A DNA stretch of 64,000 nt, from NCBI GenBank assembly GCA_964399865.1, contig CAYNRJ010000001.1, forward strand, positions 475,984 through 539,983. The letters run 5' to 3'. The notes beneath the pieces were generated by a model, which was not told the DNA's origin, did not search any database, and saw only the letters and a list, made by a program, of their open reading frames with translations. A program made the position numbers and the translations under genes. The stretch comes from an uncultured Candidatus Saccharibacteria bacterium (GTDB taxonomy: Bacteria > Patescibacteriota > Minisyncoccia > Phycocordibacterales > UBA2100). Shown one piece after another: positions 3,402-56,048 of the stretch (positions within the stretch are counted from its first letter, which is position 1; each line of letters starts with the position of its first letter).

Positions 3402-5117
3402 CTATTGGCACACAAACTGACAATTTGGACCAGTTCTTCCTACCCATGAACCATCCGAGCACTGCATAGCATCAGCAGTACAAGCAACTGACCCTGTGCT
3501 GCACGCACCTTCATACTTGAACACGGCATTCTCTGCATTCATTGCACAGCGATTTGAATATGTTTTTCCGTACTGACATTCTGCGGGATAGCTTCCTGGA
3601 GCGAATTTAGATATGAGGCAGTAATACGGTGTCGCACATACTGGAGAGTACTCCATTGTGCAGGCTGTAACTGCATTTCCTACCTTTACTGTTGTCGTCG
3701 TTTTCGTTTCCGCACCACCTGCGTCACGCACAACGATTGTTACCTTGTATGTACCCGCGATCGAATACGTATGTGAGAAGGTTGTAGTCTGCACGAATGA
3801 TTCCGCGCGCATACCTGCTGACATAGTTGGCACGGCATAGTACTCATCCCCCCAGGTTATCTGATAACTAAGCTGCTGATTCTCTGGGTCGCTCGCGGAT
3901 ATTGTCCATGTGCCTGCCTGATTCACTGAAAGCGTTGTTGGACCAGAGAACGTAGAAACAACTGGTGGTTTATTTGTTGTGACCGTTCGGTCAAAGTAAC
4001 TAGTGCAGTATGCTTTCTGTGCGATATCGCCCGGCGCACATGCTTTGAGCGTGCACATCCCAGGACCTCCCGGTGTGCCACGTGAGCAAGAATTGCAACC
4101 GTCGTACCACGTTTTGCACTGCGGATCAGACGCAGGGTCGGTTGTTATTGTCTTACATTGTCCTTCGTGTACGAACATCGCGCCTGCAGCGAGCATCTCG
4201 CAGCGGTTACCGTACGTCTGCTGCACAGGATTGCATGGCGCTGTGATGCAGTAGACCTGAGTCTGTCCGCAGACTGGCATATATTCTTTCGTGCACGCCA
4301 TCTGATCTCCGACGATGATCTGCACTTTTCCTACAGTTTCCTGTTGAATTGCTGCGCGGCATGCAACTTGCCCGGCACATGGATCAATAGTGTGAGTAAG
4401 CGTTGCGGTATATGTGCCATTTGCCGTATAGGTGTGAGTGTTTACTCCTGGACCGGTGCACGCATCCGCTGGTGCTGGACAATTTGTCGCAGCCTCGCTT
4501 GATCCATCTCCGAAATTAATTGTGTATGTGTGTCCCGGAGCGCGGAAACCACTGAGCCACGTGTTGAACTTCACTGTAAGCGGTGCAGTTCCCCTCTGAG
4601 GATTTGCAGTAAATCGCTGCGCTGAATTACCGCCTCCGCACCAGATCTTAATTCGTTCACGACTTAGTGGACCGAATGTTCCTATACTCTGAACGCCTTG
4701 TGCAGCTTGCCACTTTGCAACAGCCTGCGCAGTGACGGGCCCAAAGTATCCTGTCGCATTCGCTGAAAAATATCCCTCTTGATTCAAAAATTCTTGCAGA
4801 CTCATCACGTCGTCACCCTGCGCACCAACAGAAAGCGAGCGAGTTAACCGCTCACATACGCGATGCTTTTGGGGATTAGCAGATGGGTTATTGAAGGAGT
4901 CCAGAATGATACTGCTACCGGTAACTGTAGCGTTAGAAGATCCCTGGAGGCCATTCAATTGCTTCGTAAGTTCTGCAACTTTGGCGAGAAGCTCCCTTAT
5001 CTGTGACTGGATCTGCTCGACGGAAGTTACTTGAGCCTCTACTGGACTCGCGAGAAAACTCCCCGAGACGATGAGGATACCTGCGATCCCTATACTGGCC
5101 AAAATTCGCTTATGCAT
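3402..5117 (-). CDS. Secreted protein with a peptidoglycan-binding (PG_binding_1-like) domain plus Cys-rich/PKD-like domains
   Basis: Signal peptide 'MHKRILASIGIAGILIVSGSFLASPVEA'; coiled-coil; 'DDVMSLQEFLNQEGYF...GYFGPVTAQAVAKWQAAQGV' PG-binding motif; many paired Cys. Confidence 0.6.
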   Translation of the reverse strand: MHKRILASIGIAGILIVSGSFLASPVEAQVTSVEQIQSQIRELLAKVAELTKQLNGLQGSSNATVTGSSIILDSFNNPSANPQKHRVCERLTRSLSVGAQGDDVMSLQEFLNQEGYFSANATGYFGPVTAQAVAKWQAAQGVQSIGTFGPLSRERIKIWCGGGNSAQRFTANPQRGTAPLTVKFNTWLSGFRAPGHTYTINFGDGSSEAATNCPAPADACTGPGVNTHTYTANGTYTATLTHTIDPCAGQVACRAAIQQETVGKVQIIVGDQMACTKEYMPVCGQTQVYCITAPCNPVQQTYGNRCEMLAAGAMFVHEGQCKTITTDPASDPQCKTWYDGCNSCSRGTPGGPGMCTLKACAPGDIAQKAYCTSYFDRTVTTNKPPVVSTFSGPTTLSVNQAGTWTISASDPENQQLSYQITWGDEYYAVPTMSAGMRAESFVQTTTFSHTYSIAGTYKVTIVVRDAGGAETKTTTTVKVGNAVTACTMEYSPVCATPYYCLISKFAPGSYPAECQYGKTYSNRCAMNAENAVFKYEGACSTGSVACTADAMQCSDGSWVGRTGPNCQFVCQ

Positions 5118-5254
5118 ACGTAGTAAAAAACTTAGTCTTTAAATAATGATTTTAGTGTAGCACTGGATGAGACGTGCGAGCGGCCAACTTCTTTCCGTTG
5201 CATATCTCCGATTTCGTGGTTAAGTATTCGAAGTCAGAACGCCAGGAGGGCACG

Positions 5255-6037
5255 ATGACAGAAACGTTGAGCATTGAGGCTGCCGAGTCAGATCTGAAGC
5301 AGATTTGGGGACGCATCTACGGCCTCTTATATGGACGAATCGGGTCCAGCACGTTCGAGACGTGGTGTAGGTCCCTCGACTTCCACTCGCGCCAGGGTGC
5401 GACGGTATATTTGTCCGTCCCCACGCGATCGCTGCGTCATTGGATTGCCGGGCATTACGTTTCCGACCTCCTCGACTTGTGGAAGGAGTACGGGATCGAG
5501 AAAGTGGAGATAGTGCTGCGGGGCGTTGAACGCGCTCCCCCGGCGCCACAGATCGAAAAGCCGCGCCGAGTTCCGAGACGAGGAGTCATGTCGAGAGTGG
5601 CTCTAGAGGACCCGCCAAGCGAGCGAGAGGACACAGAAGTACGGGCACGGAAGCCCGCCCGGACTATCGCGAATCGGGACCTGCCGAAGCTCCCGCTCCT
5701 GCCGTCACTCGCGGCCGAGGAGATCGCCGGACTGCGGCAGAGGTACCCTGAGCGCTTTACGATCGATAACGTAGCGAACAAGGTGGCGGCCGCGTTCAAA
5801 ACGACGGAACTGGACATGATCCATCGCAACGAGCAGATCATGCTGCTCGCTCTTCGCATCACCATGCTGATCGCAGTCGAGTTACTGGGGATGGATAAGC
5901 GAGATGTTGCGGACGCACTCCGCATCAACTACATGCGCGTGGCATCTGGACTGAGCCACCTCGAGCGACAGATCACGGCGAATCCGCCCCTGCAGGACGT
6001 GATCGACCGACTGAAGGTGTTCATCCTCCGCGGCTAG
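5255..6037 (+). CDS. DnaA-like protein with an N-terminal domain-I-like region and a C-terminal domain-IV (DnaA box-binding HTH) but no AAA+ ATPase domain
   Basis: ORF 5174..6037 trimmed to MTETLS (strong SD 'aggaggg' 8 nt upstream). N-term 'FETWCRSLDF...VYLSVPTRSLRHWIAGHYVSDLLDLW' resembles DnaA_N. C-term 'FTIDNVANKVAAAF...IMLLALRITMLIAVELLGMDKRDVADALRINYMRVASGLSHLERQI' resembles DnaA domain IV. No Walker A/B. Local GC about 57-58 %. Confidence 0.55.
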   Translation: MTETLSIEAAESDLKQIWGRIYGLLYGRIGSSTFETWCRSLDFHSRQGATVYLSVPTRSLRHWIAGHYVSDLLDLWKEYGIEKVEIVLRGVERAPPAPQIEKPRRVPRRGVMSRVALEDPPSEREDTEVRARKPARTIANRDLPKLPLLPSLAAEEIAGLRQRYPERFTIDNVANKVAAAFKTTELDMIHRNEQIMLLALRITMLIAVELLGMDKRDVADALRINYMRVASGLSHLERQITANPPLQDVIDRLKVFILRG

Positions 6038-6055
6038 TGCCGCCGAAGAATGCGA

Positions 6056-6084
6056 GAGGGCGCCCCATGGGTGCCCTCCTTTTT
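6056..6084. terminator. Bidirectional rho-independent terminator between convergent genes
   Basis: GAGGGCGCCCC-atg-GGGTGCCCTC hairpin followed by TTTTT; lies between the DnaA-like (+) stop and the pgk (-) stop. Confidence 0.6.
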
Positions 6085-7219
6085 ACTTGAGCGCTTCCAC
6101 GCCCGGGAGTGTCCCTTTCAATAGATATTCGAGCATTGCGCCTCCTCCTGTAGATAGAAACCCAAGTTTTTCTTGCGGCACTCCTGTTGCTTCGATAGCA
6201 GCGATGGTGTCTCCTCCTCCAATCACTACCTTTGCTCCTCGCGCGTGGGCGTTTGCTATAAGCTCAGCGATTTGATGCGTGTACGTAATATATCCTTTCT
6301 CGTACATACCTGTTGGACCACTCCACAAAATACTTTTTGCTTCCGCGATGAATGGCGCGAGCATCGCCACTGTCTCGGGTCCAATGTCCACTATCTTGTC
6401 ATCCTCTGTCACACCTTCAGGCTTCTTAACTCCCGCATGTCCATCTGATGTCTCCCCTGTCACATCGATAGGTGCAAGGAACTTTGGATTCGAAAGAATA
6501 TCTTCGCCAGGAAGTTCCTTTGATATGAGCGATCGTCCTACTGGAAGCCCGCGCGCTTTGAATACGTCATTTGCGAGCGCGCCTGTGATGAAGAGATGAT
6601 CATACGCACTAAGGAGTGCATTAATGAGAGGTGCTTTCGTTTCGAATTTTGCGCCGCCAAGGATAGCAAACGAGGGTGATTCTGGAGTGCGTGCTTTATT
6701 TAATTGTTCAACTTCTTCTTTCATAAGAAGTCCCGCGTACGACGGCAAGAACTTTGGAATACCAACCATTGATGCACTCTCACGGTGAGCGCTCGGGAAT
6801 GCGTCACTCACATATAGTTCAGCGAGCGATGCGACCTCGCGCGCAAATGATTCATCGCCCGCTACCTCACGAGCGTCCTGCTGTAAATTCTCCAGAAGGA
6901 TGACGTCGCCTTCTCGCATCGCACTAATCGCACTAGTCACCGCCGGTCCCGATAATGCAGGAACATAAAAGACCGGGAGAAATGCTTTCATCGCCTCCGC
7001 AACTGGCTTCGTGGTGTCCTTCACATCGCGACCGATCTTTGCGATGACTATCACGCGTGCGCCATTTTTCGAGAGGAATTCAATTGTTGCGAGAGAACGC
7101 TTGAGTCGGAATATATCCGATACCTGCCCCTTATCATTGAGTGGAAGATCGAGCCCTGCACGAAGAAGTACACGTTTACCTTTAAGATCACCCGCCGGGA
7201 TTTCGTTGATGCATTTCAT
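6083..7219 (-). CDS. pgk: Phosphoglycerate kinase
   Basis: 378 aa; N-term 'KRVLLRAGLDLPL', 'GGGDTIAAI', 'STGGGAMLEYL' conserved PGK motifs. Confidence 0.9.
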   Translation of the reverse strand: MKCINEIPAGDLKGKRVLLRAGLDLPLNDKGQVSDIFRLKRSLATIEFLSKNGARVIVIAKIGRDVKDTTKPVAEAMKAFLPVFYVPALSGPAVTSAISAMREGDVILLENLQQDAREVAGDESFAREVASLAELYVSDAFPSAHRESASMVGIPKFLPSYAGLLMKEEVEQLNKARTPESPSFAILGGAKFETKAPLINALLSAYDHLFITGALANDVFKARGLPVGRSLISKELPGEDILSNPKFLAPIDVTGETSDGHAGVKKPEGVTEDDKIVDIGPETVAMLAPFIAEAKSILWSGPTGMYEKGYITYTHQIAELIANAHARGAKVVIGGGDTIAAIEATGVPQEKLGFLSTGGGAMLEYLLKGTLPGVEALK

Positions 7220-8117: not shown

Positions 8118-9563
8118 TTAATTCTCTCTCCAAAGCGCAAACTTATAGTCCGTCGAAATAATTGGCGTAAACGGTGGCGGAGAAAAGGCGAGCAATTGAT
8201 CGTAGTAATCGTATCGTTGCAAATAACCCGATATCGTAACCCCGCCCGAGACCCACGCTGTTCCCGTGCGGCCATTCGAGACAACTGTCCCTACTGTTGT
8301 GAGTTCGCTTTGTGTCACATACGACGCGTACGATGACCCCACCCTTTGGCTGTTATCGTATGAAGAGCTGTTCGTAAAGAAGTCGCGACCATAGTGCCCA
8401 CTTTGTGCGACGAAGACCCCATGTATTTCCATATCGTCAGGAGACACGAGCGGGATAAGAACGTTGCGCTCGGCAATCACCGTGAGGCCATCCGTTCCAT
8501 CATTTGATGCGTATAAAATGTCATCGCGTAGATATGCGTCCGGACTCGTACTGGAATTATCCGGAGTCGCGGCAACAACGGTTACTTTCCCATTTACTGT
8601 ACCTTCTATCCATACGCGGTCCTCGAAGAAAAGGAGACTGCAGTCAGACGGAATTGCGTATGTTCCAAGGAGCGACTGATTACTAATAGTGCTGTACTCT
8701 GTTCCCCACCCGTACTGACTAGAGGAACTTGGGTGCCCGACGGTCGCAGACACTCTATATATAGTCACTGTGCCATTAGAATTGAAGATAAGATGGTACC
8801 CGCGATTATTCACAGTGCCGGAGGCAGCTGCTCGATAAATTCCTCCCTCGTTTTGAGCTTTAGTCCTAAGGTCCGTAAAATTTACTCCGATTGCAGCGAA
8901 ATTCACATTCGGAACCGGATAGGTCCAGAGCGCTGGGTTACTTCCACTTCCAACGACACCCGGCGCATTTGATTGCGTAGGAGAACAATTGTAGTTCGAG
9001 TCACAGCTCCAAGTCGCTACAGCACTCATGACATCGGAGTTGTGTGTTGCATCCATTCGGACTCCACCGTTCGAGTGATACGGTCCTCGAATGTTTCTGT
9101 CCGGACCCGCCCATACGTTGCTATTTAATAGGTATGAATATTCAGCAACCGAGGGCATCATGTACCGTGCTGAAAGCGTGCGCTTAAATCCTACGCCGGC
9201 GTTCGATCTCCCTTCCGACACAAGATCCACCCATTGCACCGCATCGCATTGAAGATTTGCAGTTGCGGTCACCGTGGCATCCCCTATCTCTCCTCCCTCA
9301 GGATCATCCACATCATAGTCGTATGGACTTACGAGCCCAGTACCGTCATCAAGGATCTCAGGATTATGCGCAAGGAACCATCGATAATATTCAAGACCTG
9401 CTTCCGCAACATGGAGTGCCTGCTCTCTCGCATACAGAGCGCGTCCATATTTAGATTGTGTAAGCGCGTAACTCGAGATCGTTCCAAGAATTAGGCCGAA
9501 CACACCGATGAATGCTACGACGAGCATGACAGTGATCCCTGATTCTGATGTTCTTTTTGTCAT
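8118..9563 (-). CDS. Large type IV pilin-like / PilX-like minor pilin protein
   Basis: N-terminal hydrophobic helix 'ITVMLVVAFIGVFGLILG' followed by a PilX_N-like 'ALYAREQALHVAEAGLE'; 481 aa, Ser/Thr/Asn-rich extracellular part. Confidence 0.55.
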   Translation of the reverse strand: MTKRTSESGITVMLVVAFIGVFGLILGTISSYALTQSKYGRALYAREQALHVAEAGLEYYRWFLAHNPEILDDGTGLVSPYDYDVDDPEGGEIGDATVTATANLQCDAVQWVDLVSEGRSNAGVGFKRTLSARYMMPSVAEYSYLLNSNVWAGPDRNIRGPYHSNGGVRMDATHNSDVMSAVATWSCDSNYNCSPTQSNAPGVVGSGSNPALWTYPVPNVNFAAIGVNFTDLRTKAQNEGGIYRAAASGTVNNRGYHLIFNSNGTVTIYRVSATVGHPSSSSQYGWGTEYSTISNQSLLGTYAIPSDCSLLFFEDRVWIEGTVNGKVTVVAATPDNSSTSPDAYLRDDILYASNDGTDGLTVIAERNVLIPLVSPDDMEIHGVFVAQSGHYGRDFFTNSSSYDNSQRVGSSYASYVTQSELTTVGTVVSNGRTGTAWVSGGVTISGYLQRYDYYDQLLAFSPPPFTPIISTDYKFALWREN

Positions 9564-9566
9564 AGA

Positions 9567-10163
9567 TTAATGACCGACGAGATTTCGGATTGCAGCAGAT
9601 GAACTGAGTACGAACTGATTCGGAAGTACTGCGACGTTCACGTTCACCGCGAGACTGACCTTTACGAATCGAACGCTTGTCCAGTTGGCGAAATTCGTTA
9701 TCTCAGAGCCGAGCTCATCATAGTACCTGAACGTGGCGAGTCCTTGTGCGGTGTTGCGAACATATTGTCCAAGAACTGATGCGGATTCAACGCCGGTGTA
9801 ATCAGGTGGATTTCCCGTTGGCTCCAGAACTCCTCGCATGAGGTTTGTTCCTGAGATGTAGTAGTGCACACGTTCAATCGTCGGATCATTGTCTATGTCC
9901 GCGTAAAAAATGAAATCGTTCGCGCCGATCGAATGAATCGGGAATGCGCCCTGACTTGAGTATGCCGCTTCGCGAATTGTTCTCACCGACTGCTCGAGTG
10001 CACGCTGACCTGTTGTGACCGCTTCTGCTTGTTCGATCGTGTATGCATTCGTTCGATAGAAATATAAGAGCGTCGAAACTATCGCGAGCATCACCATTGT
10101 GAATACTGAGATCCATACTAAGACTTCAATGAATGTCATCCCTCGCTCGTGTTCGTATCTCAT
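9567..10163 (-). CDS. Prepilin-type N-terminal cleavage/methylation domain protein (pseudopilin)
   Basis: 'GMTFIEVLVWISVFTMVMLAI' is a class III signal (G-FTLIE-like); 198 aa. Confidence 0.7.
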   Translation of the reverse strand: MRYEHERGMTFIEVLVWISVFTMVMLAIVSTLLYFYRTNAYTIEQAEAVTTGQRALEQSVRTIREAAYSSQGAFPIHSIGANDFIFYADIDNDPTIERVHYYISGTNLMRGVLEPTGNPPDYTGVESASVLGQYVRNTAQGLATFRYYDELGSEITNFANWTSVRFVKVSLAVNVNVAVLPNQFVLSSSAAIRNLVGH

Positions 10164-11923
10164 AGCGAAGGCAACACTACTGATAATTGGGACTCATTAG
10201 ATACAGTGACCGCACTACTCTCGTACGTCTGATAGCCGGCCTTCGAAACGCTGATCGAATAGGTTGCCGTTTCGAGATCATTAAAGAATGTTTGCCCGCA
10301 TGACGAGGTGGTGAGTGTCGTGTCATATCCTGTTTTGTATAGTCGTACAGATGCTCCTTCGAGAAGGCTTCCCGTATTTGAACGTACATCTACTAGTAGA
10401 GTGTTATCCGTGTATGGGAGGAGGTACAGACGCGTGGTCTGAGAGCCTCCTGGCGTCAAAACTTCTGGCTGAGGGTTACACGAGCCCGCGAGATTGAAGC
10501 CTGTTGTTGTCGCAATTCCGAGTTGGTATGTATCCGCTTCGATACCAGAGAGGACAATCGATGCGCCTGCACCACTGTCATGCGTCGTATTGTATTTGTA
10601 CACGGTCGGACTATTCCCGATCGTCTTCGATCCTCGCATAGAGAATGACTGATTTGGAAGAGCCTCTGGCCCTGACCTGTAGGAAACACTCCACGACTCA
10701 AGTGAAGGTGTAACATCTGGATCATCTGTAAGTAACTCTGCACCAAATCGCAGACTCGTATACGTCCCATGTGGGATCGCGGAGATGTCGATCGGCGAAG
10801 TACTGAAGCCCGCACTATTTCCCGACAAGACCGCGTCCGGAATGAGATTGTCGGTGGTATCGTACACGCGGTACAAAATATCTGTCTGTGCGGGAGTTGT
10901 ATCTTCAAATGAAATAGAATCCCAACCTACGAGCAAATTAGGTGTGAGTGTTACCGAACGCACAGAGCCAGGTGAAACGTATGGAGCCCCACCTGCCAAG
11001 ACCACTTCCCCACCTGAAATATCCGCGCTTGTTGTTGCGGAGACCAAACTCGCATCAGCAAATGAATCATCCCAAGTTCGCACAACATATTGCATGTATG
11101 TCTCGATCGTTTTCGTCGCGGTGAGATCAATTGTAAATGTTGCCGATGTTGTTTGATCATTCACGACAGTCACGTGACGCGGAGTTGGATTTGGGTTTGA
11201 AACACTTACTGGATATGTTTGCGCTGTTGAATATCCTGGCTTTGAAACGGTAATCTGATAATTACTTGCCGCGGGGGCCCCGATGAATGAAACAATTCCT
11301 GCGACATTCGTATACGTCCTGATACTTATCGGGGGTACGGTCCCTGTGTTGATGATATCGATCTGCGCACTTGAAACCGGAATCGCTGCTTCATTTACCA
11401 CACTCACCGTAAGGACTCCCCCCGCAACCGCTGTCTCAACGCCAACAGGTGAAACACGTCCCACGAGTTCCAGGCTTCTCTCACCATTCCTAGAGGTCCA
11501 GGAAACATCGACGCGAATCGTCTTGTAGTCAGCAATAATATCGTTCTCATCAAGAGCCCCGAGACCATCGGCAGGGTCGTCTGAATAAATGACAGAGGTG
11601 CGTCTTGTGTAGGGCACTTCGTTCCACGTAACTGTTTCAGTCTGAGGAACTATGCCCGCGGGAATACCTCCAACGACTCCAATCTGAGGATACGAAAGTG
11701 AACGAAGATACTCCATGCGCTCATTTAATAGAGCAATGGCGCCAGCACGCGTTTTGTTATTCGTAACAACCTCAAGAGAATATTGGAATACCGCCGTTAT
11801 GCCCGCAAAGACTACGAGCATGAGAGCGATCGCAACCATCGAGTCGAGGAGCGTTGCACCTTTTTCTCCAGAGTCCGCAGGAATTATTTTGAATTTCTTT
11901 TGCATAGCTAGGAGCGTACGCAC
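10160..11923 (-). CDS. Large pilin-like protein with a prepilin-like N-terminus and beta-rich extracellular domains
   Basis: 'GATLLDSMVAIALMLVVFAGI' pilin-like N-terminal helix; 587 aa, Thr/Ser/Val-rich; 4-nt overlap with the downstream pseudopilin gene (operon coupling). Confidence 0.55.
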   Translation of the reverse strand: MRTLLAMQKKFKIIPADSGEKGATLLDSMVAIALMLVVFAGITAVFQYSLEVVTNNKTRAGAIALLNERMEYLRSLSYPQIGVVGGIPAGIVPQTETVTWNEVPYTRRTSVIYSDDPADGLGALDENDIIADYKTIRVDVSWTSRNGERSLELVGRVSPVGVETAVAGGVLTVSVVNEAAIPVSSAQIDIINTGTVPPISIRTYTNVAGIVSFIGAPAASNYQITVSKPGYSTAQTYPVSVSNPNPTPRHVTVVNDQTTSATFTIDLTATKTIETYMQYVVRTWDDSFADASLVSATTSADISGGEVVLAGGAPYVSPGSVRSVTLTPNLLVGWDSISFEDTTPAQTDILYRVYDTTDNLIPDAVLSGNSAGFSTSPIDISAIPHGTYTSLRFGAELLTDDPDVTPSLESWSVSYRSGPEALPNQSFSMRGSKTIGNSPTVYKYNTTHDSGAGASIVLSGIEADTYQLGIATTTGFNLAGSCNPQPEVLTPGGSQTTRLYLLPYTDNTLLVDVRSNTGSLLEGASVRLYKTGYDTTLTTSSCGQTFFNDLETATYSISVSKAGYQTYESSAVTVSNESQLSVVLPSL

Positions 11924-11930
11924 GTACCAG

Positions 11931-13151
11931 CTATCCGATGTTTTCCGACAAAGAGTAGATAGGCGAAATCATCGATATCGCGAAGAACCCGACAGCGCCT
12001 CCGATGAAAAGCATGAGGAGGGGTTCAACAATTGTTGAGAGATCTTTTGTTTTTCGATCTACCTCATCTTCGTAGAAGCCTGCAAGACGTTTCAACATTT
12101 CAGTTACTTCTCCGGTCTCTTCTCCGACTGCCATCATCTCCCCCACGAACGCAGGGTAGAGATCTTCGCGACGCGTGAATGCAGTAGAGAGCGGCTGACC
12201 TTGCGAGACATTTGTGCGAGCCGTTTTGATAACCTCTCTGAAGTAAGAATTTTGGACAACTTCGCCTGCGATATCAAGGGAGGCTAGAACATCGACTCCA
12301 GATGAGAGCAGGGATGCGAGCGTGCGAGCAGTGCGGGCTGCATTCACTTCGCGCACCATTGGACCTATGAGTGGCATTTTCAAAAAGAAAATATCTTTAA
12401 TCCGCTTCCCGATAACGGTGCGGCCGCCCATATAGAACGCGCCGCAAAAGGTGACGAGACCAAAAAGTGCGAGCACTGTGTATTCAACGAGAATATTACT
12501 GATCGTAATGATGAGTTGAGTCGAGGCTGGCAATTCCGCATTCATTTCTGCAAAAGTCTGCGCAAGCGTTGGCACGACGTTCACCATCATGAACGCGCCG
12601 ATACCAAAAATCGCAACGACAACAACTGCTGGATACATGAGAGCGCTGCGAATTTTTTTCTTTAACTGATACATGCGCTCCATCTGATCGCCGATTGTCG
12701 CAAGCGCGCCCGAGAGGTCTCCGCTCTCTTCCCCTGCTCGCACCATGGCGACGAACAACTTACTGAACACGTGCGGGAATTTACCGAGTGATTGATGGAG
12801 AGTATCTCCTCGCCGCACATTGGCCGCGATCTCGGAGATGACATGCCCGAGTTTCGGATTCTTCATTTGTCGCTCGAGAACGGAAAGCGCACGCGCGAGA
12901 GCAAGTCCGGCAGCGAGCATTGCGCCTAGATTGCGCGCAAATAATATTTTGTCGTACTCCTTAACACTCCCGATCCTCGAACTCCAGTATGCGAGGCTCC
13001 ACATCTTCTGCCCACCTTCTTCGGACATCGCGACGAGTCGTCCACCCTCTTTTCTCAAAACTTCGTACAACTCAAAACGATCACGTGCTTCCGCGACACC
13101 TTTATATACTTCACCGTCCGTCTTTTCGGCGGTATAGACGTACCGAGTCAT
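11931..13151 (-). CDS. pilC: Type IV pilus assembly platform protein PilC / GspF family
   Basis: 406 aa; two GspF repeats and polytopic membrane regions (e.g. 'PLSTAFTRREDLYPAFVGEMMAVGEETG', 'DLSGALATIGDQMER'). Confidence 0.8.
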   Translation of the reverse strand: MTRYVYTAEKTDGEVYKGVAEARDRFELYEVLRKEGGRLVAMSEEGGQKMWSLAYWSSRIGSVKEYDKILFARNLGAMLAAGLALARALSVLERQMKNPKLGHVISEIAANVRRGDTLHQSLGKFPHVFSKLFVAMVRAGEESGDLSGALATIGDQMERMYQLKKKIRSALMYPAVVVVAIFGIGAFMMVNVVPTLAQTFAEMNAELPASTQLIITISNILVEYTVLALFGLVTFCGAFYMGGRTVIGKRIKDIFFLKMPLIGPMVREVNAARTARTLASLLSSGVDVLASLDIAGEVVQNSYFREVIKTARTNVSQGQPLSTAFTRREDLYPAFVGEMMAVGEETGEVTEMLKRLAGFYEDEVDRKTKDLSTIVEPLLMLFIGGAVGFFAISMISPIYSLSENIG

Positions 13152-13252
13152 TCAATTAATTATAGCGCGCAAAATCTCAAAGAAATGTCTGATGCAAAAT
13201 AAATGTGCAAACATTGAAATGCATTTTCAAATTCAAAAGCGAGGGGTACTGC

Positions 13253-13333
13253 TCTCTGAGGGTCTTCGCAGGCGCGACGGCGCCGAGACCGAGCGCTGCA
13301 CCAGCAGGCGCAGATAGCGACCCGAGGAGAGTA
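13253..13333. repeat. GC-rich ~80-nt intergenic element, copy B
   Basis: Near-identical to 8025-8103; terminal stem here is CTCTC/GAGAG, a compensatory change relative to copy A; lies between pilC and pilB. Confidence 0.7.
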
Positions 13334-13350
13334 GTACTCTGAGCGCCCCC

Positions 13351-15120
13351 CTATTCAGAAATAACGCGGAGCACCTCTTCAATCGAAGTAAGGCCTTGTG
13401 CTGCTTTGAAGATTCCGTCTTCTGCCATTGTGAGCATCCCTTCGCTCTTCGCTTGCTTCTCGACTTCCGCCGCAGTTGCACTCTTCATCACGAGCTCTCG
13501 AATGGTTGGAGTGACTGATAGAATTTCGTAAATACCCTTTCGTCCTGCGTATCCTGTTGGACTTTGCGCACTTTCCTTTGGACGATAGAACGGTACGTTT
13601 TTCCATGTCGCATCTTTTGAAACAACTTTTTCTTCCTTGAGCGCACGAAGAACCGCACCTGTATCTATCATCTTTTCTAAATGAGCCTGCTCGTCGCGCG
13701 AGAGTTCGTACTTCTCTTTCTCGGGAGTAAGGACTCGCACAAGACGCTGACCAATTGCGATGCGGAGAGTTGAGACCAAGAGAAATGGCTCGACTCCCAT
13801 ATCTAGTAGACGCGGTATAGCTCCCGCAGCGGAGTTCGTGTGGAGTGTCGAGAGGACGAGGTGACCTGTGAGGGCGGCGTTAATAGCAAGAGAGGCAGTC
13901 TCCTTATCGCGGATTTCTCCCACCATCACGATGTCTGGGTCCTGACGCACGAGAGAGCGGAGACCGTTGGCAAATGTGAATCCGATCTCAGGACGAACTT
14001 GCGTCTGATTTATTCGTTTCATCTGGTATTCGATAGGATCCTCGATCGTTGAGATGTTTACGTTCGGCGTATTTACGATATCGAGGAGCGTGTAGAGCGT
14101 CGTTGATTTACCAGCGCCTGTCGGACCACAGGCGAGCACCATTCCTGTCGTTGCGCGCATCGCTTCGTGCATGCGATCGAGTCCTACCCCATGAATACCT
14201 ATAGATTCCAATGTGAAACCTGAGATCGAGTCCCGCAGGAGTCGCATGACGATTTTCTCTCCGTAATACGTTGGAAGGACAGAAACACGGAACGAAATTT
14301 TCTCGCCAGCGGACTCTGCTCCGAAACGTCCGTCCTGTGGCAGGCGATGCTCGTCGAGACGCATGCTCGCTAACACTTTTATGCGCGCAGTGATCGCGGC
14401 GGCAGCATGCTTCGGCAGCTCCATTGCGTCGTGAAGAATGCCGTCGATGCGGTAGCGTATAAGTAGAGCGGTTTCCATCGGCTCAATATGTATATCTGAT
14501 GCACCTTGGGCATTCGCGTGACGGATAAGAGTATCAACGACACGCACCGCCGACGCACCCTCAGCCATCTGACGGAGGTCTTCTTCTTTTGTCGGCGCTC
14601 CTCCTTTCTCAAGTGCGGCCATTTCGCGCTCGATCACAGAGCCAAGATTATCCTTGAGCCCCTGCTGATACTGCTTCAGCGCGTATTTGATACTCGCATC
14701 ATCCGTAAGACGTGGGAGGATCTTGAGCCGTGTCTTCTTTTTTATGAAATCGATCGCGGCAAGATCATCGGTATCAAGCATCGCAACCTCAAGCTCATCG
14801 CCGCGGTGACTGTACGCGATGATGTTGTTACGTCGTGCGATAGGCTCGGGAACTAAAGAAAGTGTTTCGTATTTGATGTCAGTTCCCGTGAGAGCGACGA
14901 AAGGAATTCCGAGAATGTACGCGTACGTTCGGCGGAGTTCATCCTCCCCTATTACATTGTGCGCCTTTAAAATGTCGCCAACTGGTTTACCAGATTCTTT
15001 TGCCTCTTTTTCTGCGCTATCAAATGCTTTTGCAGAAACTAACCCTGCATCAGAGAGAAATGATTTGAGATGAGTGTCGCTTATATACATAGCGCTGGTT
15101 TCATTAAAAGTATACCTCAT
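13351..15120 (-). CDS. pilB: Type IV pilus assembly ATPase PilB (GspE family) with N-terminal GSPII_E_N domain
   Basis: 589 aa; Walker A 'GPTGAGKSTT', 'DIVMVGEIRD' Walker B/Asp box, His box, C-terminal tetracysteine-like region. Confidence 0.85.
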   Translation of the reverse strand: MRYTFNETSAMYISDTHLKSFLSDAGLVSAKAFDSAEKEAKESGKPVGDILKAHNVIGEDELRRTYAYILGIPFVALTGTDIKYETLSLVPEPIARRNNIIAYSHRGDELEVAMLDTDDLAAIDFIKKKTRLKILPRLTDDASIKYALKQYQQGLKDNLGSVIEREMAALEKGGAPTKEEDLRQMAEGASAVRVVDTLIRHANAQGASDIHIEPMETALLIRYRIDGILHDAMELPKHAAAAITARIKVLASMRLDEHRLPQDGRFGAESAGEKISFRVSVLPTYYGEKIVMRLLRDSISGFTLESIGIHGVGLDRMHEAMRATTGMVLACGPTGAGKSTTLYTLLDIVNTPNVNISTIEDPIEYQMKRINQTQVRPEIGFTFANGLRSLVRQDPDIVMVGEIRDKETASLAINAALTGHLVLSTLHTNSAAGAIPRLLDMGVEPFLLVSTLRIAIGQRLVRVLTPEKEKYELSRDEQAHLEKMIDTGAVLRALKEEKVVSKDATWKNVPFYRPKESAQSPTGYAGRKGIYEILSVTPTIRELVMKSATAAEVEKQAKSEGMLTMAEDGIFKAAQGLTSIEEVLRVISE

Positions 15121-17899: not shown

Positions 17900-18304
17900 T
17901 CATTCCCTCGCAGCTCGCCTAGCTTTACGCTCCGCTTCCGCTGCTAACTCGAGCTTCCTCTCGTCAGCCATGAGGGACAATTCGCTTGTCGTACTGATTG
18001 CCGCCCCGATCCCATAACCGACGCCGAGCAGCACCACATTCACCACCCCGAGGACAAGAAGAGAAACCTCGACTGGGGGCTCGGCAGCCCAAACACCGAT
18101 CGCAGCCCAAGTAGTGCAGACAGCGTTAGTTACCGCCAAGAGGATGACCGCAGACCACCACTTCAATCGCGATGGCGCGCCCTTCCTCAATTTCTTGGCG
18201 CTCGTACTTTCGCTCGGATCAGCACGCCTTGCATACTGCCTTGCGTACCAGAAGCCGATAGCTAATGCCGCGACGAACATCACTGCATGCGGGAGAAAAT
18301 TCAT
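17900..18304 (-). CDS. Small membrane protein (3 predicted helices, charged C-terminal tail) in a high-GC islet
   Basis: ORF 17900..18355 trimmed to MNFLPHAVMFVAALAIGFWY; local GC about 58 %, well above the flanking genes. Confidence 0.45.
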   Translation of the reverse strand: MNFLPHAVMFVAALAIGFWYARQYARRADPSESTSAKKLRKGAPSRLKWWSAVILLAVTNAVCTTWAAIGVWAAEPPVEVSLLVLGVVNVVLLGVGYGIGAAISTTSELSLMADERKLELAAEAERKARRAARE

Positions 18305-18380
18305 TGGGCGATCCTCCGTGTGCCTACCAACAGCAAACACTCTTCCTCGATTCACGTCAATCTGCTACACTCTCAGGCAT

Positions 18381-21756: not shown

Positions 21757-21929
21757 TAGTCTATACTCCTTCGTGCAAAAAATAGGTTTTTATTTTATTA
21801 CTTGTGGATAAAAACGTTTCCACAAGCCTTAACTCGTCACCTTCTCCCATACGGAGGGAGATATTTAAAACAAGAAGCCGCCCACACTATAGAAGTGTCG
21901 CACTGAGCGGACTTCCTTGTGGTGAGCGG

Positions 21930-27989: not shown

Positions 27990-28048
27990 ACGTGCATTAT
28001 ATATGCGAAATATGCGGGTTAGCCGCAGATATGGGTACTATTGTGGCT

Positions 28049-28062
28049 ATTTCACGTGAAAT
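28049..28062. promoter_or_regulatory. Third copy of the ATTTCACGTGAAAT palindrome, about 60 bp upstream of the yraN-like start; candidate operator
   Basis: Exact 14-bp palindrome with a CACGTG core, in a 420-bp AT-rich ORF-free region. Confidence 0.45.
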
Positions 28063-28410
28063 GTAGCAAATATCGTAACTACGTAACATAAAATATTCAT
28101 GGACAAGGTAACGCCGCTCTGTGGGCATTATCTCTATATTTCAAGCCATTTTTCTAGGAATATACTCAAATCCCTATAGGATAAAGACACCTAAGGTACG
28201 TATTTTCATGTCCTTTATCCCCATATCCACAGACTTTTCCACAGTTTCTAAGGCTTTTTCATGGTTATTAGTTCCAAAGAGTCTGTTAGATCGGTAGTTC
28301 TCGAGACAATTCGTCCTTGATGTCCTTTAGAAAACAACTCCGGTGATTTGTCAATACTGGAACACAATTTATCCTTGACCGAAAGACTCGTGATGTACTA
28401 GGTTTGCATC

Positions 28411-48234: not shown

Positions 48235-49125
48235 ATGAAATTACTTCGTGCTCATTTCATTCTTTTTCTCATTGGAGTTACCGCACTACTCCTTGTGATC
48301 GGTGCGTTCGCACTAAAAGAATATTCGCCAGCTCAAAATACACCTAGGACAATCGCATGGGGAGGCCTTGGAGGCACCCCGTATTATCCACTTTCGGGCG
48401 AAAGAGCGATCGAAAGTAATCCTGCAGAGGAGAATATCTACAGCTCAATTCAAAGCGGGCCGCCGTTCTATTATTCAACGACTAACTCGGAAGCGGCGGA
48501 TGAGGAAGATGACACGTTCGACGTCGACGCGTTTCTTGCATATCTCAAGGGAGAAACGAGGACATCAGAAACTGCGGTCGAGGAGGAAAAACCGCTTTCG
48601 TTTCTTGAGAATCCATACTCATTTATCACAAATGGGGTCTCCTTCCCGAGTAGCTCCCTTACGAAAGAACGCACACCAATACAGCAGGCTTTATATGAGT
48701 ACGGAAATAAGGCTGGAAAGATCATTCAGACATTTGAAGACTCGAATCAAAACATGGCTGATGTAGTGCAGGCACAATCTGAAGATCCGGAAGACCCTCT
48801 TAAGGTCGCTGCCCTTATAAAACTAGCGGACTCTCTAGCAGATGTAGGGGTTTCACTAGAAGAACTCTCCTCTGTTCCAGCAGAAGCGGCCAATCAGAAC
48901 GCCAAACTTGCGACAAGCTATAAAGATATGGGTGCAAAACTTGCGCTCGTGCCTAACGCCATGACCGAAGACAGTAGGGTAGAGACAATGCTTACCTATA
49001 ATGCTGCCGCCGAATCGTTCGTCACAAATTACGTGGCTATCGTCACTCTTTTCTCGATCATGGAGGTCACATTTTCTCCTGATGAGCCGGGTAGTGTGTT
49101 CACTTTCACGATGACAGGGTTTTAA
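48235..49125 (+). CDS. Bitopic membrane protein (N-terminal TM plus ~260-aa extracytoplasmic domain); first gene of the T4SS-like operon, possibly VirB8-like
   Basis: 'MKLLRAHFILFLIGVTALLLVIGAFALK' TM anchor; the architecture (short N-terminus, 1 TM, ~230-260 aa domain) matches VirB8-type proteins, but no sequence signature was recognised. Confidence 0.5.
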   Translation: MKLLRAHFILFLIGVTALLLVIGAFALKEYSPAQNTPRTIAWGGLGGTPYYPLSGERAIESNPAEENIYSSIQSGPPFYYSTTNSEAADEEDDTFDVDAFLAYLKGETRTSETAVEEEKPLSFLENPYSFITNGVSFPSSSLTKERTPIQQALYEYGNKAGKIIQTFEDSNQNMADVVQAQSEDPEDPLKVAALIKLADSLADVGVSLEELSSVPAEAANQNAKLATSYKDMGAKLALVPNAMTEDSRVETMLTYNAAAESFVTNYVAIVTLFSIMEVTFSPDEPGSVFTFTMTGF

Positions 49126-49185
49126 GCCTCGACTGTCCACTCATTGTCCCCACGAAATCCCCAGGAAGCGGTTATACTTTATGCA

Positions 49186-50001
49186 ATGAAAGTAAGCGCG
49201 TTGAAGGGCGTGAGTTTTTCGCGTATGGCGATAACTGCAACACTGTCGATCGCAGCTGTTATTGGAGTTTCTGCGTGGCAACTAACAGCCCCTCTCCGGA
49301 GCGGGGGTGAAGAACTCGCTACCGGGAGTAACGATTCCACTATCACGATGGGTCGGACTGGAGATCCGGATCGTCAGTTTGATTGGCAGAAAAGTCTTGA
49401 GGGAATCTCGTCCGACGATCCAGATGGACTTTCAAATATCGGTGAAAATGTTGTTGAAACTTTGGTTGGTTCATACGTCGCGCTAAAAGACGCGGGAGTG
49501 TATACGCCAGAACAAGGGGCACAAATAGCTGGTGTAATTGCAACAGATCTCAAGGCCGATATTTCATTCCGTCTCTATGACACTGACGACATTAAGACCG
49601 ACACAAGCACTTCTTTCACTCGTTCGCTCGCATATCGAAGCGATATGCGCATCGCCCTCGAGCCTCTTTTGGAAAATCCTACGTATGAACTCGAGATACT
49701 CGGAGGATATATGGAGACTAAGGACCCAAAGTATCTCGCTGAACTGGAGAACATGGTCCGAAATTACAATGTTGCTATCGAGAATGCCGCACAAGTAGTC
49801 GTTCCGAAAGACGCGATCACATACCATATCAGTGTTCTGAACGCACTCTCTGAATTCGGCGCGACACTCGCACAAATGGTTAAGCACATTGACGATCCCT
49901 TCGCTTCTGCGGCGCTCCTTCGGACATTCAATGGCGCAGAGGCAAAAATGTTTACTTCGTTTGATGAGCTCGCAGACTATTTCCGTAAATCTACCTCATG
50001 A
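49186..50001 (+). CDS. Bitopic membrane protein, distant paralog-like of the upstream gene
   Basis: ORF 49144..50001 trimmed to MKVSALKG; TM 'MAITATLSIAAVIGVSAW'; same architecture as the 48235 gene. Confidence 0.5.
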   Translation: MKVSALKGVSFSRMAITATLSIAAVIGVSAWQLTAPLRSGGEELATGSNDSTITMGRTGDPDRQFDWQKSLEGISSDDPDGLSNIGENVVETLVGSYVALKDAGVYTPEQGAQIAGVIATDLKADISFRLYDTDDIKTDTSTSFTRSLAYRSDMRIALEPLLENPTYELEILGGYMETKDPKYLAELENMVRNYNVAIENAAQVVVPKDAITYHISVLNALSEFGATLAQMVKHIDDPFASAALLRTFNGAEAKMFTSFDELADYFRKSTS

Positions 50002-51593
50002 AAACAAGCTCCCTCATTTTCATACCGTTTAAGTTTGCTATCGCAACAATTACTCTGTTTCTCTTACTGACCTCTTTCGCTCAAGCTCAAACAGATACCT
50101 CAACCACCACTGCAGGATTATCGAGCTCAGGTATATTCGACTGCAACAGTAAAGCCGGAGCTGAGGCGATGAGCAGTGTCGGAACAAAAAGCACGATTCA
50201 AAGCTTATATGTCCCAGTTTCTGACGCAGGAGTAACCTTAAACACCGGATCTTTGGTCTACAAGGAATGTGTTCTCGACCCTATAAACACGCGCATGCGA
50301 GAGAACGCTGCTTTCTCGCACGTTCAACTCGGCATAAAGGCGTTTAACAAGGGGGCTGATGGTGAACCAATGTTTATAAAAGATTACATCGCGAAAGTTT
50401 CGGAGCGCAGCGACAAAACATTCCTACGTACATTTGAAGAAGGGGAGCTTGATACACTCAATCCAGCCTTTAAGGATGAAGTTAAGCGCGCGATCGCTGA
50501 AGATTATAAAACTCAGACCCGTGAGCCGAACAAGGTACTAGAATGTTCGTACAAAGGCGATCTCGCAAAAGTATACGCAGGACAACCGGAAGATATTTGG
50601 GGAGCTATCATGGCCATTGCAGAGCCAGCATGTAATCCGGTTGGAGCTTACAATCTCGCGCAAGAATATATTATAGACAATATCGCATCAGATAAGGAAG
50701 AGATGCTCTTCCGCCTTAATAACAGCAACGCCATCAAAGATGTCCAAACATACAACGAGGAGACCGGGCGATACGAGACCCTCACTCCAGGTATCATCGT
50801 TGCTGAAAATGTTCAGCAACTTATAACATCCGGCTTCCGGCAACTTGAGAACGCCGACGAGATAGGTCAAATGGTTGATGCGCTATATTCTGGCCTCTCC
50901 ACACAAGTAGTTTCCGATACTCGAGGACTCGCGGGAGTAACCGAAGGATTCGCTGGCCAGCCTTCTTATCTCGACCAAATTGGTGACACGCTCCGCAAAA
51001 ACCTTCGCGATGCAGCGGTTAATATAGCTTTGGGAATTCTAAAAGGCGCGAAGCAAACCGAGATTACCTATTTCAATGCATTGAATTCGATTGCACTTAC
51101 CCTAACGGCAACGATAGGGGATCTTCGCCAGGCAGAAGCACTATGTTGGGCAGAAGTAGTACCAAAAGCTCAAGTCTATGCAAGTGCAAATAATATTCAA
51201 ATAACCGTTGCTACTTCAACCCAATTTTCACAAGCGGTTATCAATGCACAGATAACATCTCTCGCTTCAACAACGATAACGGATATACGAAAGAGTGAGA
51301 CCGCTCTCTCCCTCATAGATCATTTAATAGAGGGCATTACGAACACGACTTCTCCGGATGCCCAGCGTGTAGCTCTTCAACAGTTAGATTCTCTCGTGGC
51401 ACAAGGAGCCCTACACGGAGAATACGATGCCCAGCAGGCAGTGAAGCGAAGAGATGAGATAAAGCCGGCAATGGAAAATCTCGTGGAAGATACGGTTGTA
51501 GCATGGGCTGATTCTGCTGACGTAAATGTCGGCTGGTGTAACGTCAATAATCCTGCGGTCGCCCAAAAATGGGTCGAGGAGTGGAGAAACTGA
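49998..51593 (+). CDS. Secreted protein (signal peptide), unknown function, T4SS-like operon
   Basis: 'MKTSSLIFIPFKFAIATITLFLLLTSFAQA' signal peptide; 531 aa; 4-nt overlap with the upstream gene. Confidence 0.55.
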   Translation: MKTSSLIFIPFKFAIATITLFLLLTSFAQAQTDTSTTTAGLSSSGIFDCNSKAGAEAMSSVGTKSTIQSLYVPVSDAGVTLNTGSLVYKECVLDPINTRMRENAAFSHVQLGIKAFNKGADGEPMFIKDYIAKVSERSDKTFLRTFEEGELDTLNPAFKDEVKRAIAEDYKTQTREPNKVLECSYKGDLAKVYAGQPEDIWGAIMAIAEPACNPVGAYNLAQEYIIDNIASDKEEMLFRLNNSNAIKDVQTYNEETGRYETLTPGIIVAENVQQLITSGFRQLENADEIGQMVDALYSGLSTQVVSDTRGLAGVTEGFAGQPSYLDQIGDTLRKNLRDAAVNIALGILKGAKQTEITYFNALNSIALTLTATIGDLRQAEALCWAEVVPKAQVYASANNIQITVATSTQFSQAVINAQITSLASTTITDIRKSETALSLIDHLIEGITNTTSPDAQRVALQQLDSLVAQGALHGEYDAQQAVKRRDEIKPAMENLVEDTVVAWADSADVNVGWCNVNNPAVAQKWVEEWRN

Positions 51594-51601
51594 TCTTGCA
51601 T

Positions 51602-54142: not shown

Positions 54143-54147
54143 TAGGT

Positions 54148-54723
54148 ATGGATACAAAAATGACTCAAGAAGAATTAAATCAGAAATTGCGCGAGCGATT
54201 TCAAGAGATTCCTAAAGTACTCCAAGAGGCTATTACCTCTGCAAACGTAGAGAAACAGTTACGAGAACTCGCCACAAAACATAAGTTGCATGTGGACATG
54301 TGGCAATTACTCGAGAATGAGGTCATCGTTACACTCCTCGGTCTTCAGCCAGCAGATGACCTCGCCGCCAACCTCCAAAACGACCTCGGCCTACCCAAAG
54401 AAGCATCGATTGCGCTCGCAAGAGATGTATCTACGATAGTTTTCGCGCCAGTAAGACAAGAGCTCGAGCGGACACTGGAACATCCTGAGGCAAAGTCCGA
54501 AGAGGAGAGTGACGTTGATACCGTAAGGACACAAATACTTGAGCAAAAGCCTACACCAACTAGTACTTCACTGCCTCCGTTGGTAAAACCAGCGACCCCA
54601 CCCCCACAACCACCCACTCAAAAGATTGAAAGAGGTCCTGCGTCGGGCGCATATGTGCCCGGAGAAGTATCGAGCGCGCGAAAATCGATCGTGGATGATC
54701 CGTACAGAGAAGCGCCGCAATGA
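54148..54723 (+). CDS. Hypothetical protein with a Pro-rich C-terminal region, T4SS-like operon
   Basis: 191 aa; no TM; 'PPLVKPATPPPQPPTQ'. Confidence 0.45.
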   Translation: MDTKMTQEELNQKLRERFQEIPKVLQEAITSANVEKQLRELATKHKLHVDMWQLLENEVIVTLLGLQPADDLAANLQNDLGLPKEASIALARDVSTIVFAPVRQELERTLEHPEAKSEEESDVDTVRTQILEQKPTPTSTSLPPLVKPATPPPQPPTQKIERGPASGAYVPGEVSSARKSIVDDPYREAPQ

Positions 54724-54852
54724 AAAACTAATTTAATTCACTCTGGCGTCAATACGCTAAGAGCTTGCGTGTTATAATTCTGCCACGGGAGACTGGAAAC
54801 TAGCGCTCGTTTTCTCCTCGAAGCTAGCTGCTAGTCCCTGGCAGCTATTTAT

Positions 54853-55353
54853 ATGCAATTTCAGGTACCACAATTCATCGAGGTGGAGGATAAAATCTTC
54901 GGTCCTCTCACATTCAAGCAATTTGTGTATGTCGCAGGAGGAGCCGGGGCAGCCTATCTTTTTTGGCGAACCCTCCCATTCTTTTTTTCCGTCCCCCTCA
55001 TCATGGGGATTGGAGCCCTTGCCGCAAGCTTAGCCTTCTTTAAATACAACGGGCGCCCTTTTATTCTCGCGATGGAGCATGGCTTCTACTATCTTGTACG
55101 AACAAAACTATATTTGTGGAACAACGCGGCAAAAACTGCAAAACCTAGGAAATTAGCGACGAAAGCGACACTACCTACTAGTCAGGTATATGTGCCTACA
55201 CTTTCACAAAGCAAATTACACGAACTGGCATGGAGTTTGGACATTAAAGAACGTATTGCAGGAGGCACCGTTTCAAGCGAAGAGCGAGAAGCGGCCGCCC
55301 CGACAGATAGCATCGTCGCTCCAATACGCACCGCCCGCGATGCGAGAGTATAA
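54853..55353 (+). CDS. Small two-TM protein, VirB3/PrgI-like (directly precedes the VirB4 homolog)
   Basis: 166 aa; 'FKQFVYVAGGAGAAYLFWRTLPFFFSVPLIMGIGALAASLAFF' hairpin of two helices; position and topology as for VirB3-family proteins. Confidence 0.5.
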   Translation: MQFQVPQFIEVEDKIFGPLTFKQFVYVAGGAGAAYLFWRTLPFFFSVPLIMGIGALAASLAFFKYNGRPFILAMEHGFYYLVRTKLYLWNNAAKTAKPRKLATKATLPTSQVYVPTLSQSKLHELAWSLDIKERIAGGTVSSEEREAAAPTDSIVAPIRTARDARV

Positions 55354-55358
55354 AATCT

Positions 55359-56045: not shown

Positions 56046-56048
56046 TGT

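Follow-up and report, generated by a model that had tools for sequence, protein, structure and literature searches.

A 64-kb stretch of DNA (contig CAYNRJ010000001.1, positions 475,984 to 539,983), which was analysed over its full length and is called the window here, carries a short gene related to dnaA close to pgk. Sequence profiles and predicted structures confirmed that the encoded protein, the target of this analysis, combines DnaA domain I, a linker and DnaA domain IV, and that the whole AAA+ domain III is missing. The features of the gene, together with the corresponding place in related loci, are collected in Table 1. Residue numbers refer to the 260-aa form of the protein unless stated otherwise.

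Translation may start at GTG 5174 or at ATG 5255, the ATG being the more likely start. It was chosen by the gene callers on five contigs, and the 287-aa form was called for one database copy (P0151, one contig). A coding-like GC periodicity (0.52/0.37/0.70) runs upstream of the ATG from GTG 5174 (positions 5174-5254), and the GC content drops abruptly before 5174, with 30 % in 5118-5173. The 5' flank that the gene has in common with a syntenic homologue on contig L006 reaches the first codons of that homologue, and part of 5174-5254 is about 75 % identical. This element may serve as promoter or 5' untranslated region, either for the DnaA-like gene or for the PG_binding/PKD gene that diverges from it. 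A scan for sigma-70 consensus promoters was negative, and the loci L007-L010 showed no counterpart of the flank.

At the other end of the gene, the intrinsic terminator is kept in L006, where the blastn alignment of the pgk region spans it. Four independent assemblies, built from four sequencing runs, do not differ over the 1.4 kb around the gene (100 % identity). Misassembly or chimera formation was therefore rejected, and with it the alternative of a misassembled true dnaA, which an earlier note on this DNA had named as one that would refute its reading. Two antisense open reading frames (ORFs) lie inside the gene on the minus strand (5455-5928, 157 aa, and 5220-5549, 109 aa). They are most simply explained as a by-product of a high GC content at third codon positions (GC3).

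Table 1. Features of the DnaA-like gene and content of the slot after pgk in the window and in related loci
Feature	Sequence	Position	Strand	Remarks
DnaA-like ORF, longest form	window	5174..6037	+	GTG start, 287 aa and stop
DnaA-like coding sequence (CDS), most likely form	window	5255..6037	+	ATG start, 260 aa and stop; translation equals database protein P0001
Element common to the 5' flanks of the gene and its L006 homologue	window	5158..5240	+	about 72-75 % identical over about 80 nt, by alignment
Shine-Dalgarno-like AGGAGG	window	5244..5249	+	seen in the sequence; 5 nt before ATG 5255
DnaA domain I	window	5270..5524	+	residues 6-90; predicted fold alpha-alpha-beta-beta-alpha-alpha-beta
Disordered basic Arg/Pro-rich linker	window	5525..5704	+	residues 91-150
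Divergent DnaA domain IV	window	5705..6034	+	residues 151-260; seven predicted helices including a helix-turn-helix (HTH); DnaA signature residues replaced
Intrinsic terminator	window	6056..6088	+	stem of 10 bp, 8 of them G-C, followed by a T-run; lies where the DnaA-like gene and pgk converge
Slot after pgk	window	5118-6082		DnaA-like gene; also in L006
Slot after pgk	L007	7129-8046		unrelated 195-aa ORF
Slot after pgk	L008	7129-8127		S49 peptidase gene
Slot after pgk	L009	7129-7255		empty
Slot after pgk	L019			empty
Slot after pgk	L018 and L020			empty; PG_binding gene missing too

Domain architecture and contact residues

Domain I is recognised by direct sequence comparison. The Pfam profile DnaA_N (PF11638) scored 44.7 bits (E 1.1e-11), above its cut-off of 24.6. 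The match spans residues 43-105 in the 287-aa numbering, equal to 16-78 in the 260-aa form, which agrees with the DnaA N-terminal domain placed at about residues 15-85 by the earlier note. A phmmer search against the PDB identified domain I of B. subtilis DnaA (4tps, E 1.5e-6), and the domain I of the target is structurally superposable on DnaA domain I, including 4tps.

Domain IV is more difficult to detect. The Pfam profile Bac_DnaA_C (PF08299, gathering threshold 31.5 bits) gave no match in the target at E <= 10. The L006 homologue, P0002, reached 16.4 bits (E 0.009) with the same profile, below the threshold but with positions 3-69 of its 69 covered. With a hidden Markov model (HMM) of alphaproteobacterial-type domain IVs, P0002 was found at 1.6e-10 and the target at 8e-4. 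As its C-terminus matches both the domain IV HMM and, below the threshold, the full Bac_DnaA_C profile, P0002 served as a stepping stone to domain IV. A full-length DnaA HMM aligned with the target in two collinear pieces, at positions 10-132 and 352-427, which correspond to domain I and to the junction into domain IV. Comparison by hhalign of the C-termini of the target and P0002 with 12 DnaA domain IVs gave a probability of 97.7 % (E 1.9e-12, 95 columns). In a profile search against PDB sequences, DnaA domain IV chains appeared only at E 0.06-0.2, so that the homology of domain IV rests on the profile-profile and fold evidence. Matches to concatenated RecA in the PDB profile search were discarded as repeat artefacts.

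AlphaFold2 predicted two confident domains, with a predicted local distance difference test score (pLDDT) of about 90 at residues 11-90 and 160-260, and disorder at 92-149. The prediction from an alignment of only two sequences, the target and P0002, gave the same secondary structure, with a pLDDT of 82-94 in the C-domain; the fold was thus not imposed by canonical DnaA sequences. The predicted domain IV superposes on DnaA domain IV at 1.2-1.3 Å, and the complete domain IV fold is present, not the HTH alone. A generic HTH of the sigma-70 region 4, LuxR/FixJ or DeoR type, the finding that would have spoken against a DnaA origin of the C-terminus, was ruled out by the profile-profile and fold comparison. 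The assignment of the last 90 residues or so to domain IV, first made in the earlier note, is therefore upheld by the hhalign result, the collinear HMM pieces and the fold, and not by Bac_DnaA_C itself.

The linker was also described correctly in the earlier note as rich in Arg and Pro. It contains 11 Arg and 11 Pro in 60 residues, has an isoelectric point (pI) of 11.1 and is predicted to be disordered (pLDDT < 50). In the pairwise alignment, three islands, P..GV..RV, RA+KP.RT and LPK, are common to the target and P0002.

As for the ATPase domain, the lack of Walker motifs noticed at first reading was borne out for Walker A. The target has no such motif (G..G.GK[ST]) and no Pfam match to the AAA+ domain Bac_DnaA (PF00308), and its CDS, at 783 bp, is too short to hold an AAA+ module as well. 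The DnaA equivalog profile TIGR00362 gave 38.2 bits against a cut-off of 343.9 and covered only profile positions 1-74 of 437. Judged by its sequence, the target is not a member of DnaA proper, as the AAA+ domain is absent, the score stays below the equivalog cut-off, and the signature residues are gone.

The loss of these residues concerns the DNA-reading surface in particular. Residues were mapped to E. coli DnaA numbering in the hhalign register. The base-reading positions of E. coli DnaA, which we take from the 1j1v DnaA complex to be R399, P423, D433, H434, T435 and H439, correspond in the target to N192 (with a one-residue gap alongside), R216, N225, Y226, M227 and S231. All six DnaA-box-reading positions are thus substituted according to the alignment. 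In the basic-loop region, R405 and R407 are both replaced by Leu, and at the end of the recognition helix, R442 and K443 are replaced by Ser and His. The net charge of domain IV is +1 in the target, compared to +5 in P0002 (pI 9.8) and +7 to +11 in the DnaA domain IVs examined. The replacement of the base-reading residues and the low charge make it very unlikely that the predicted protein reads canonical DnaA boxes, and the earlier suggestion that it could occupy such boxes lost its footing. It is possible that its domain IV binds another DNA sequence, or no DNA. In domain I, the equivalents of Trp6 (W18), Glu21 (E35), Trp25 (W37) and Trp50 (W63) are kept.

Relatives, genomic neighbourhood and foreign origin

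Close relatives of the protein are very rare. An exhaustive HMMER scan of 1.84 billion representatives, clustered from about 15 billion proteins, gave 679 matches, nearly all of them to domain I only. P0002 (309 aa, E 2e-20, 29-31 % identity) was the single full-length homologue among these representatives. A word-indexed search with the whole protein recovered only the target itself. Back-translated pattern scans of genome, viral and JGI metagenome contigs found no relative, the lone Burkholderiaceae match being a 19-residue piece of domain I. The short DnaA_N matches were considered as a domain-I-only family, which was rejected: most of those scanned were truncated true DnaAs on short contigs.

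The neighbourhood of the gene comprises recJ, a HIT gene, the PG_binding/PKD gene, pgk, tpi and a type IV pilus cluster. The best named relatives of the phosphoglycerate kinase (PGK) are from Candidatus Kaiserbacteria and Parcubacteria, and the host appears to belong to a Parcubacteria-type, Kaiserbacteria-like lineage with a small genome of about 0.6 Mb. The pilus cluster (8118-15120, minus strand), which also resembles a type II secretion system, contains a T2SSE ATPase (13351-15120), T2SSF (11931-13151), a CarboxypepD_reg-domain protein and pseudopilin-like ORFs. Synteny of this cluster extends to every relative examined.

P0002 is encoded on a contig of 1.8 kb and is followed there by a convergent pgk, the same arrangement as in the window. 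The products of the two pgk genes are 89.3 % identical (75.6 % at the DNA level), whereas the two DnaA-like CDSs do not align at the DNA level. By the Nei-Gojobori method, the non-synonymous divergence (dN) was 0.84 for the DnaA-like gene vs 0.07 for pgk, i.e., about 12 times higher. The proportion of synonymous differences (pS) in pgk was 0.79. In the DnaA-like gene, the proportion of non-synonymous differences (pN) of 0.50 is lower than its pS of 0.74, as expected with some constraint. Synonymous sites are saturated in both genes. Despite this saturation, the ORF is intact in the two lineages, at 260 aa and 309 aa. Moreover, the residues common to the target and P0002 are mostly hydrophobic, which fits core positions.

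The slot downstream of pgk was compared in six loci whose PGK is 71-75 % identical to that of the window. The DnaA-like gene is absent from all six, and the slot is variously occupied or empty (Table 1). By this comparison, the gene is a lineage-specific occupant of a slot that varies in Kaiserbacteria-like genomes; it is common to two fairly close genomes and diverges very fast. In L009, a toxin-antitoxin pair of the ParE/YafQ type (11696-12253) separates the HIT gene from recJ, which again indicates that accessory genes accumulate in this conserved neighbourhood.

The composition of the gene is foreign to its surroundings. Its GC content is 59-60 % vs 49.3 % for the window, and its GC3 of 0.74 compares to a mean of 0.478 (standard deviation 0.041, maximum 0.60) for the 50 other ORFs of the window, corresponding to a z of 6.3. 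The high GC3 is uniform over both domains and the linker. P0002 likewise has a GC3 of 0.57 against 0.42 for its pgk. The high-GC islet described in the earlier note is therefore real and foreign in composition, but it is not a recent isolated insertion, given the counterpart in L006 with its similar 5' flank and terminator. Among the best domain I matches, the named full-length DnaAs are all alphaproteobacterial or from Pseudomonadota (Roseibium, Ancylobacter and 'Alphaproteobacteria bacterium'). Together, the GC3, the absence from the six related loci and the alphaproteobacterial domain I matches support the horizontal acquisition that had been proposed from the GC content. The donor was probably the DnaA gene pool of Pseudomonadota or of an alphaproteobacterial type. 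Elsewhere in the window, an ORF of 151 aa without Pfam match (17900-18355, minus strand) has the second-highest GC content (0.57; GC3 0.60); it may be another foreign gene, or no gene.

Comparison with known DnaA derivatives

Regulators of replication initiation that derive from DnaA by the loss of domains are already known; Hda, for instance, consists of the AAA+ module only. The target appears to be a truncated DnaA relative, hence a member of an already-known class, in a new form with domains I and IV. Literature searches found no characterised natural protein with this combination of domains. Compared to DnaA itself (TIGR00362), domains I and IV are homologous, the latter over its whole length, and they occur in the same order with a flexible linker after domain I. 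DnaA, however, has about 450-490 aa and carries the AAA+ domain III. Its signature RDHTTV and its basic-loop residues are both replaced in the target, which, unlike DnaA, evolves about 12 times faster than the neighbouring housekeeping gene.

HdaB from Alphaproteobacteria is a similar case. Like the target, it is an ATPase-less DnaA derivative with a domain-IV-like fold that has lost Arg399 (N192 in the target). HdaB acts as a regulator and not as an initiator (PMC7049699). HdaB binds HdaA and inhibits the regulatory inactivation of DnaA (Frandi and Collier, PMC7049699). The closest DnaA sequences of the target are also alphaproteobacterial, whereas its host is of the Parcubacteria type, where no HdaA is known. 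HdaB consists of domain IV only, while the target adds domain I and a linker of 60 residues. HdaB also keeps the equivalent of Leu422, which is Lys215 in the target. Of these two residue features, loss of Arg399 and retention of Leu422, the target thus shows the first one. With a domain I and without a Leu422 equivalent, the target would, by sequence, not be an HdaB.

Several 'mini-DnaA' proteins (the P0119 cluster, P0033, P0049, P0143 and P0008) join DnaA_N to a bona fide Bac_DnaA_C in the same order of domain I, linker and domain IV, without AAA+ domain, in 215-325 aa. In contrast to the target, most of them clear the threshold of the Pfam profile Bac_DnaA_C with ease and retain RDHTTV, which makes it probable that DnaA boxes are still recognised. 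The search ranking places them no nearer to the target than full-length DnaAs, suggesting that the ATPase module was lost more than once. Paper searches found no characterisation of these proteins, which are labelled 'chromosomal replication initiation ATPase DnaA' by the sources that give them a name. One of them (L011, 8001-8681; P0160/P0119) belongs to a 90 %-identity cluster of 70 on contigs rich in AmoC and insertion sequences. P0033 is encoded on L014 (758-1564). P0049 (L016, 606-1277) adjoins ddl and uvrCAB in a compact context of 46 % GC, and its signature, RNHATV, is degenerate in part.

Stand-alone DnaA C-terminal domain proteins of phages (BFVD, 'Chromosomal replication initiator, DnaA C-terminal') match the fold of the C-domain, with a template modelling score of up to 0.8 on the target-length scale and Foldseek E-values of only 1e-3 to 1e-2. 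They have no ATPase, like the target, and no domain I, unlike it. The helicase operator DciA (DUF721) has no domain IV, and the target belongs clearly to the sequence family DnaA_N, not to DUF721.

The significance of the gene may be viewed in this context. The data point to several apparently independent lineages of mini-DnaAs, to which the target would add a case from a Parcubacteria-type genome of about 0.6 Mb, where each retained gene likely matters. As its family has only two members, its architecture results simply from taking domains away from a well-known protein, and its function is a prediction, the case is moderately interesting rather than surprising.

Role of the gene and rival explanations

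The favoured reading, held with slightly better than even confidence, is that the gene is a horizontally acquired, lineage-specific and fast-diverging derivative of dnaA without AAA+ domain, whose product would be an adaptor or regulator and not an initiator. The Shine-Dalgarno sequence and terminator of its own, the four identical assemblies, the intact ORF in two lineages and the confident folds all argue for a real, maintained gene. It would have been acquired by a Kaiserbacteria-like lineage into the variable slot downstream of pgk. Its non-synonymous divergence since then would have run at about 12 times the rate of pgk, with both folds preserved. Going by its domain content, the protein would neither bind ATP nor form a DnaA filament nor melt an origin. 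It would presumably not be an initiator, because without AAA+ domain it could not oligomerise through AAA+ contacts or melt DNA. Domain I mediates self-association and contacts with the helicase and regulators in DnaA (PMC5448010), and in the target, it would offer a protein-protein interface for self-association or for contacts with DnaA- or helicase-type partners. Domain IV would present an HTH surface with replaced box-reading residues and, if it binds DNA, would read a sequence other than TTATCCACA. If so, it would show a re-targeting of the DnaA DNA-binding domain. If the protein did bind DnaA or helicase partners, it would add a new type of modulator of initiation, in a lineage with an as yet undescribed control of replication.

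Several points weigh against this proposal. The role of adaptor or regulator is predicted from sequence and modelled structure, and DNA binding is putative. With the contact residues nearly all gone and the charge low, the C-domain may have lost DNA binding altogether. In domain I, E. coli Phe46, which binds DnaB and DiaA (PMC5448010), is replaced by Ser59 in the target, although P0002 has Phe at this position. The donor assignment is tentative, being based on the ranking of domain I matches. Furthermore, the GC3 of 0.74 fits poorly with a long vertical residence, as the host GC3 is 0.45-0.48 and the synonymous sites of pgk are saturated. Residence of the gene since the separation of the two genomes should have let its GC3 relax toward 0.45. 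Recurrent replacement by recombination within the conserved flanks, or some selection on GC3, may explain the high value.

A rather unlikely alternative is a pure protein decoy comparable to HdaB. Here, domain IV would no longer bind DNA, and the protein would titrate a partner of DnaA, thereby raising or lowering initiation. The partner could be of the domain I type, i.e., the helicase or its loader, or of the domain IV type. The substitution of every DNA-reading position and the net charge of +1 are in line with this idea, HdaB provides the precedent of a domain-IV-only protein without Arg399 that works by binding HdaA (PMC7049699), and the short conserved linker islands could be partner-binding motifs. 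However, the equivalent of Leu422, which HdaB keeps for its contact with Hda, is Lys in the target and Gln in P0002, and no Hda-like gene is known in the host, where no search for one was made. The HTH geometry is also fully retained, and the basic domain IV of P0002, with its sub-threshold matches to sigma-70 region 4 and other HTHs, favours DNA binding in the family.

It is improbable that the gene is a decaying remnant, i.e., an acquired dnaA fragment or a deletion derivative that drifts without function. Drift would account for the dN about 12 times that of pgk, for the lost functional signature residues, for the variable slot and for a family of only two members among about 15 billion proteins. 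Yet a drifting ORF would hardly be expected to remain open over 260 and 309 aa while synonymous sites became saturated between the two lineages. Both domains fold confidently in the predictions, with mostly hydrophobic residues in common with P0002, the Shine-Dalgarno sequence and terminator are retained, and pN is well below pS.

In a still weaker and very unlikely reading, the protein would initiate replication, or bind the origin, for a plasmid or phage that has integrated or decayed, and its domain I would recruit the host helicase to the iteron-like sites of that element. The earlier note had named a mobile-element-encoded initiator as an option, and the foreign composition, the variable slot and the abundance of stand-alone DnaA C-terminal domain proteins in phages are compatible with it. 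However, only one gene is inserted between pgk and the PG_binding/PKD gene, with no adjoining integrase, partition, capsid or relaxase gene. It has no flanking direct or inverted repeats of note and no adjacent tRNA, and no iteron-like repeats were found in 4900-6300. The target had no match in PHROGs or PADLOC and no relative on viral contigs. In tblastn searches of plasmids and phages, nothing beyond weak domain I similarity appeared, to alphaproteobacterial dnaA and to two unannotated phage contigs. These nearly empty searches led to a down-weighting of both the mobile-element initiator and the idea of a defence gene. Rfam gave no match at the locus.

Another proposal, regarded as highly doubtful, assumes a putatively epibiotic Parcubacteria cell that uses the protein as a mimic of the DnaA of its host or prey, derived from an alphaproteobacterial-type dnaA stripped of its ATPase. 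Such a mimic may disturb replication initiation or DnaA-dependent regulation in the partner cell or in a DnaA-bearing mobile element. An arms race with repeated sampling of foreign genes would explain a fast divergence that spares the folds, a GC3 that has not relaxed, and a differing recognition helix; the latter indeed differs completely between the target and P0002. The clusters in the window that resemble a type IV secretion system (T4SS) and a type IV pilus are circumstantial in this respect, and export or action across species is hypothetical. The T4SS-like cluster (48235-63514, plus strand) is of the monoderm type. It includes a PrgI family gene (54853-55353), a TraG/VirB4-like P-loop ATPase (56049-57998), a T4SS pilin domain in a protein of 1071 aa (60299-63514) and several large ORFs without Pfam match.

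Finally, the gene is almost certainly not the true DnaA of the organism in degenerate or misassembled form: the six-frame translation of the 64-kb window did reveal no other DnaA-like ORF, but the window is only about one tenth of the 613-kb contig, the longest one that carries the gene, the four assemblies agree, 38 bits against a cut-off of 344 for TIGR00362 is far too low, the composition is foreign, and related genomes lack the gene at this locus.

Sequences resembling DnaA boxes occur in the window where the earlier note placed them: the perfect box spans 21803-21811, and ATATCCACA is present at 28223 and 31677. Their frequency is nevertheless at chance level, with 16 box-like 9-mers of at most one mismatch in the window against 10.7±3.5 expected, which is not significant. 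Three of them (TTATCCCCA, ATATCCACA and TTTTCCACA) lie in the same orientation within 29 bp (28215-28243, plus strand). This group is located in an intergenic region of 420 bp (27990-28410) between a UPF0102/NERD-like gene and an unannotated ORF of 345 aa, and it could be a DnaA-regulated promoter or a titration site.

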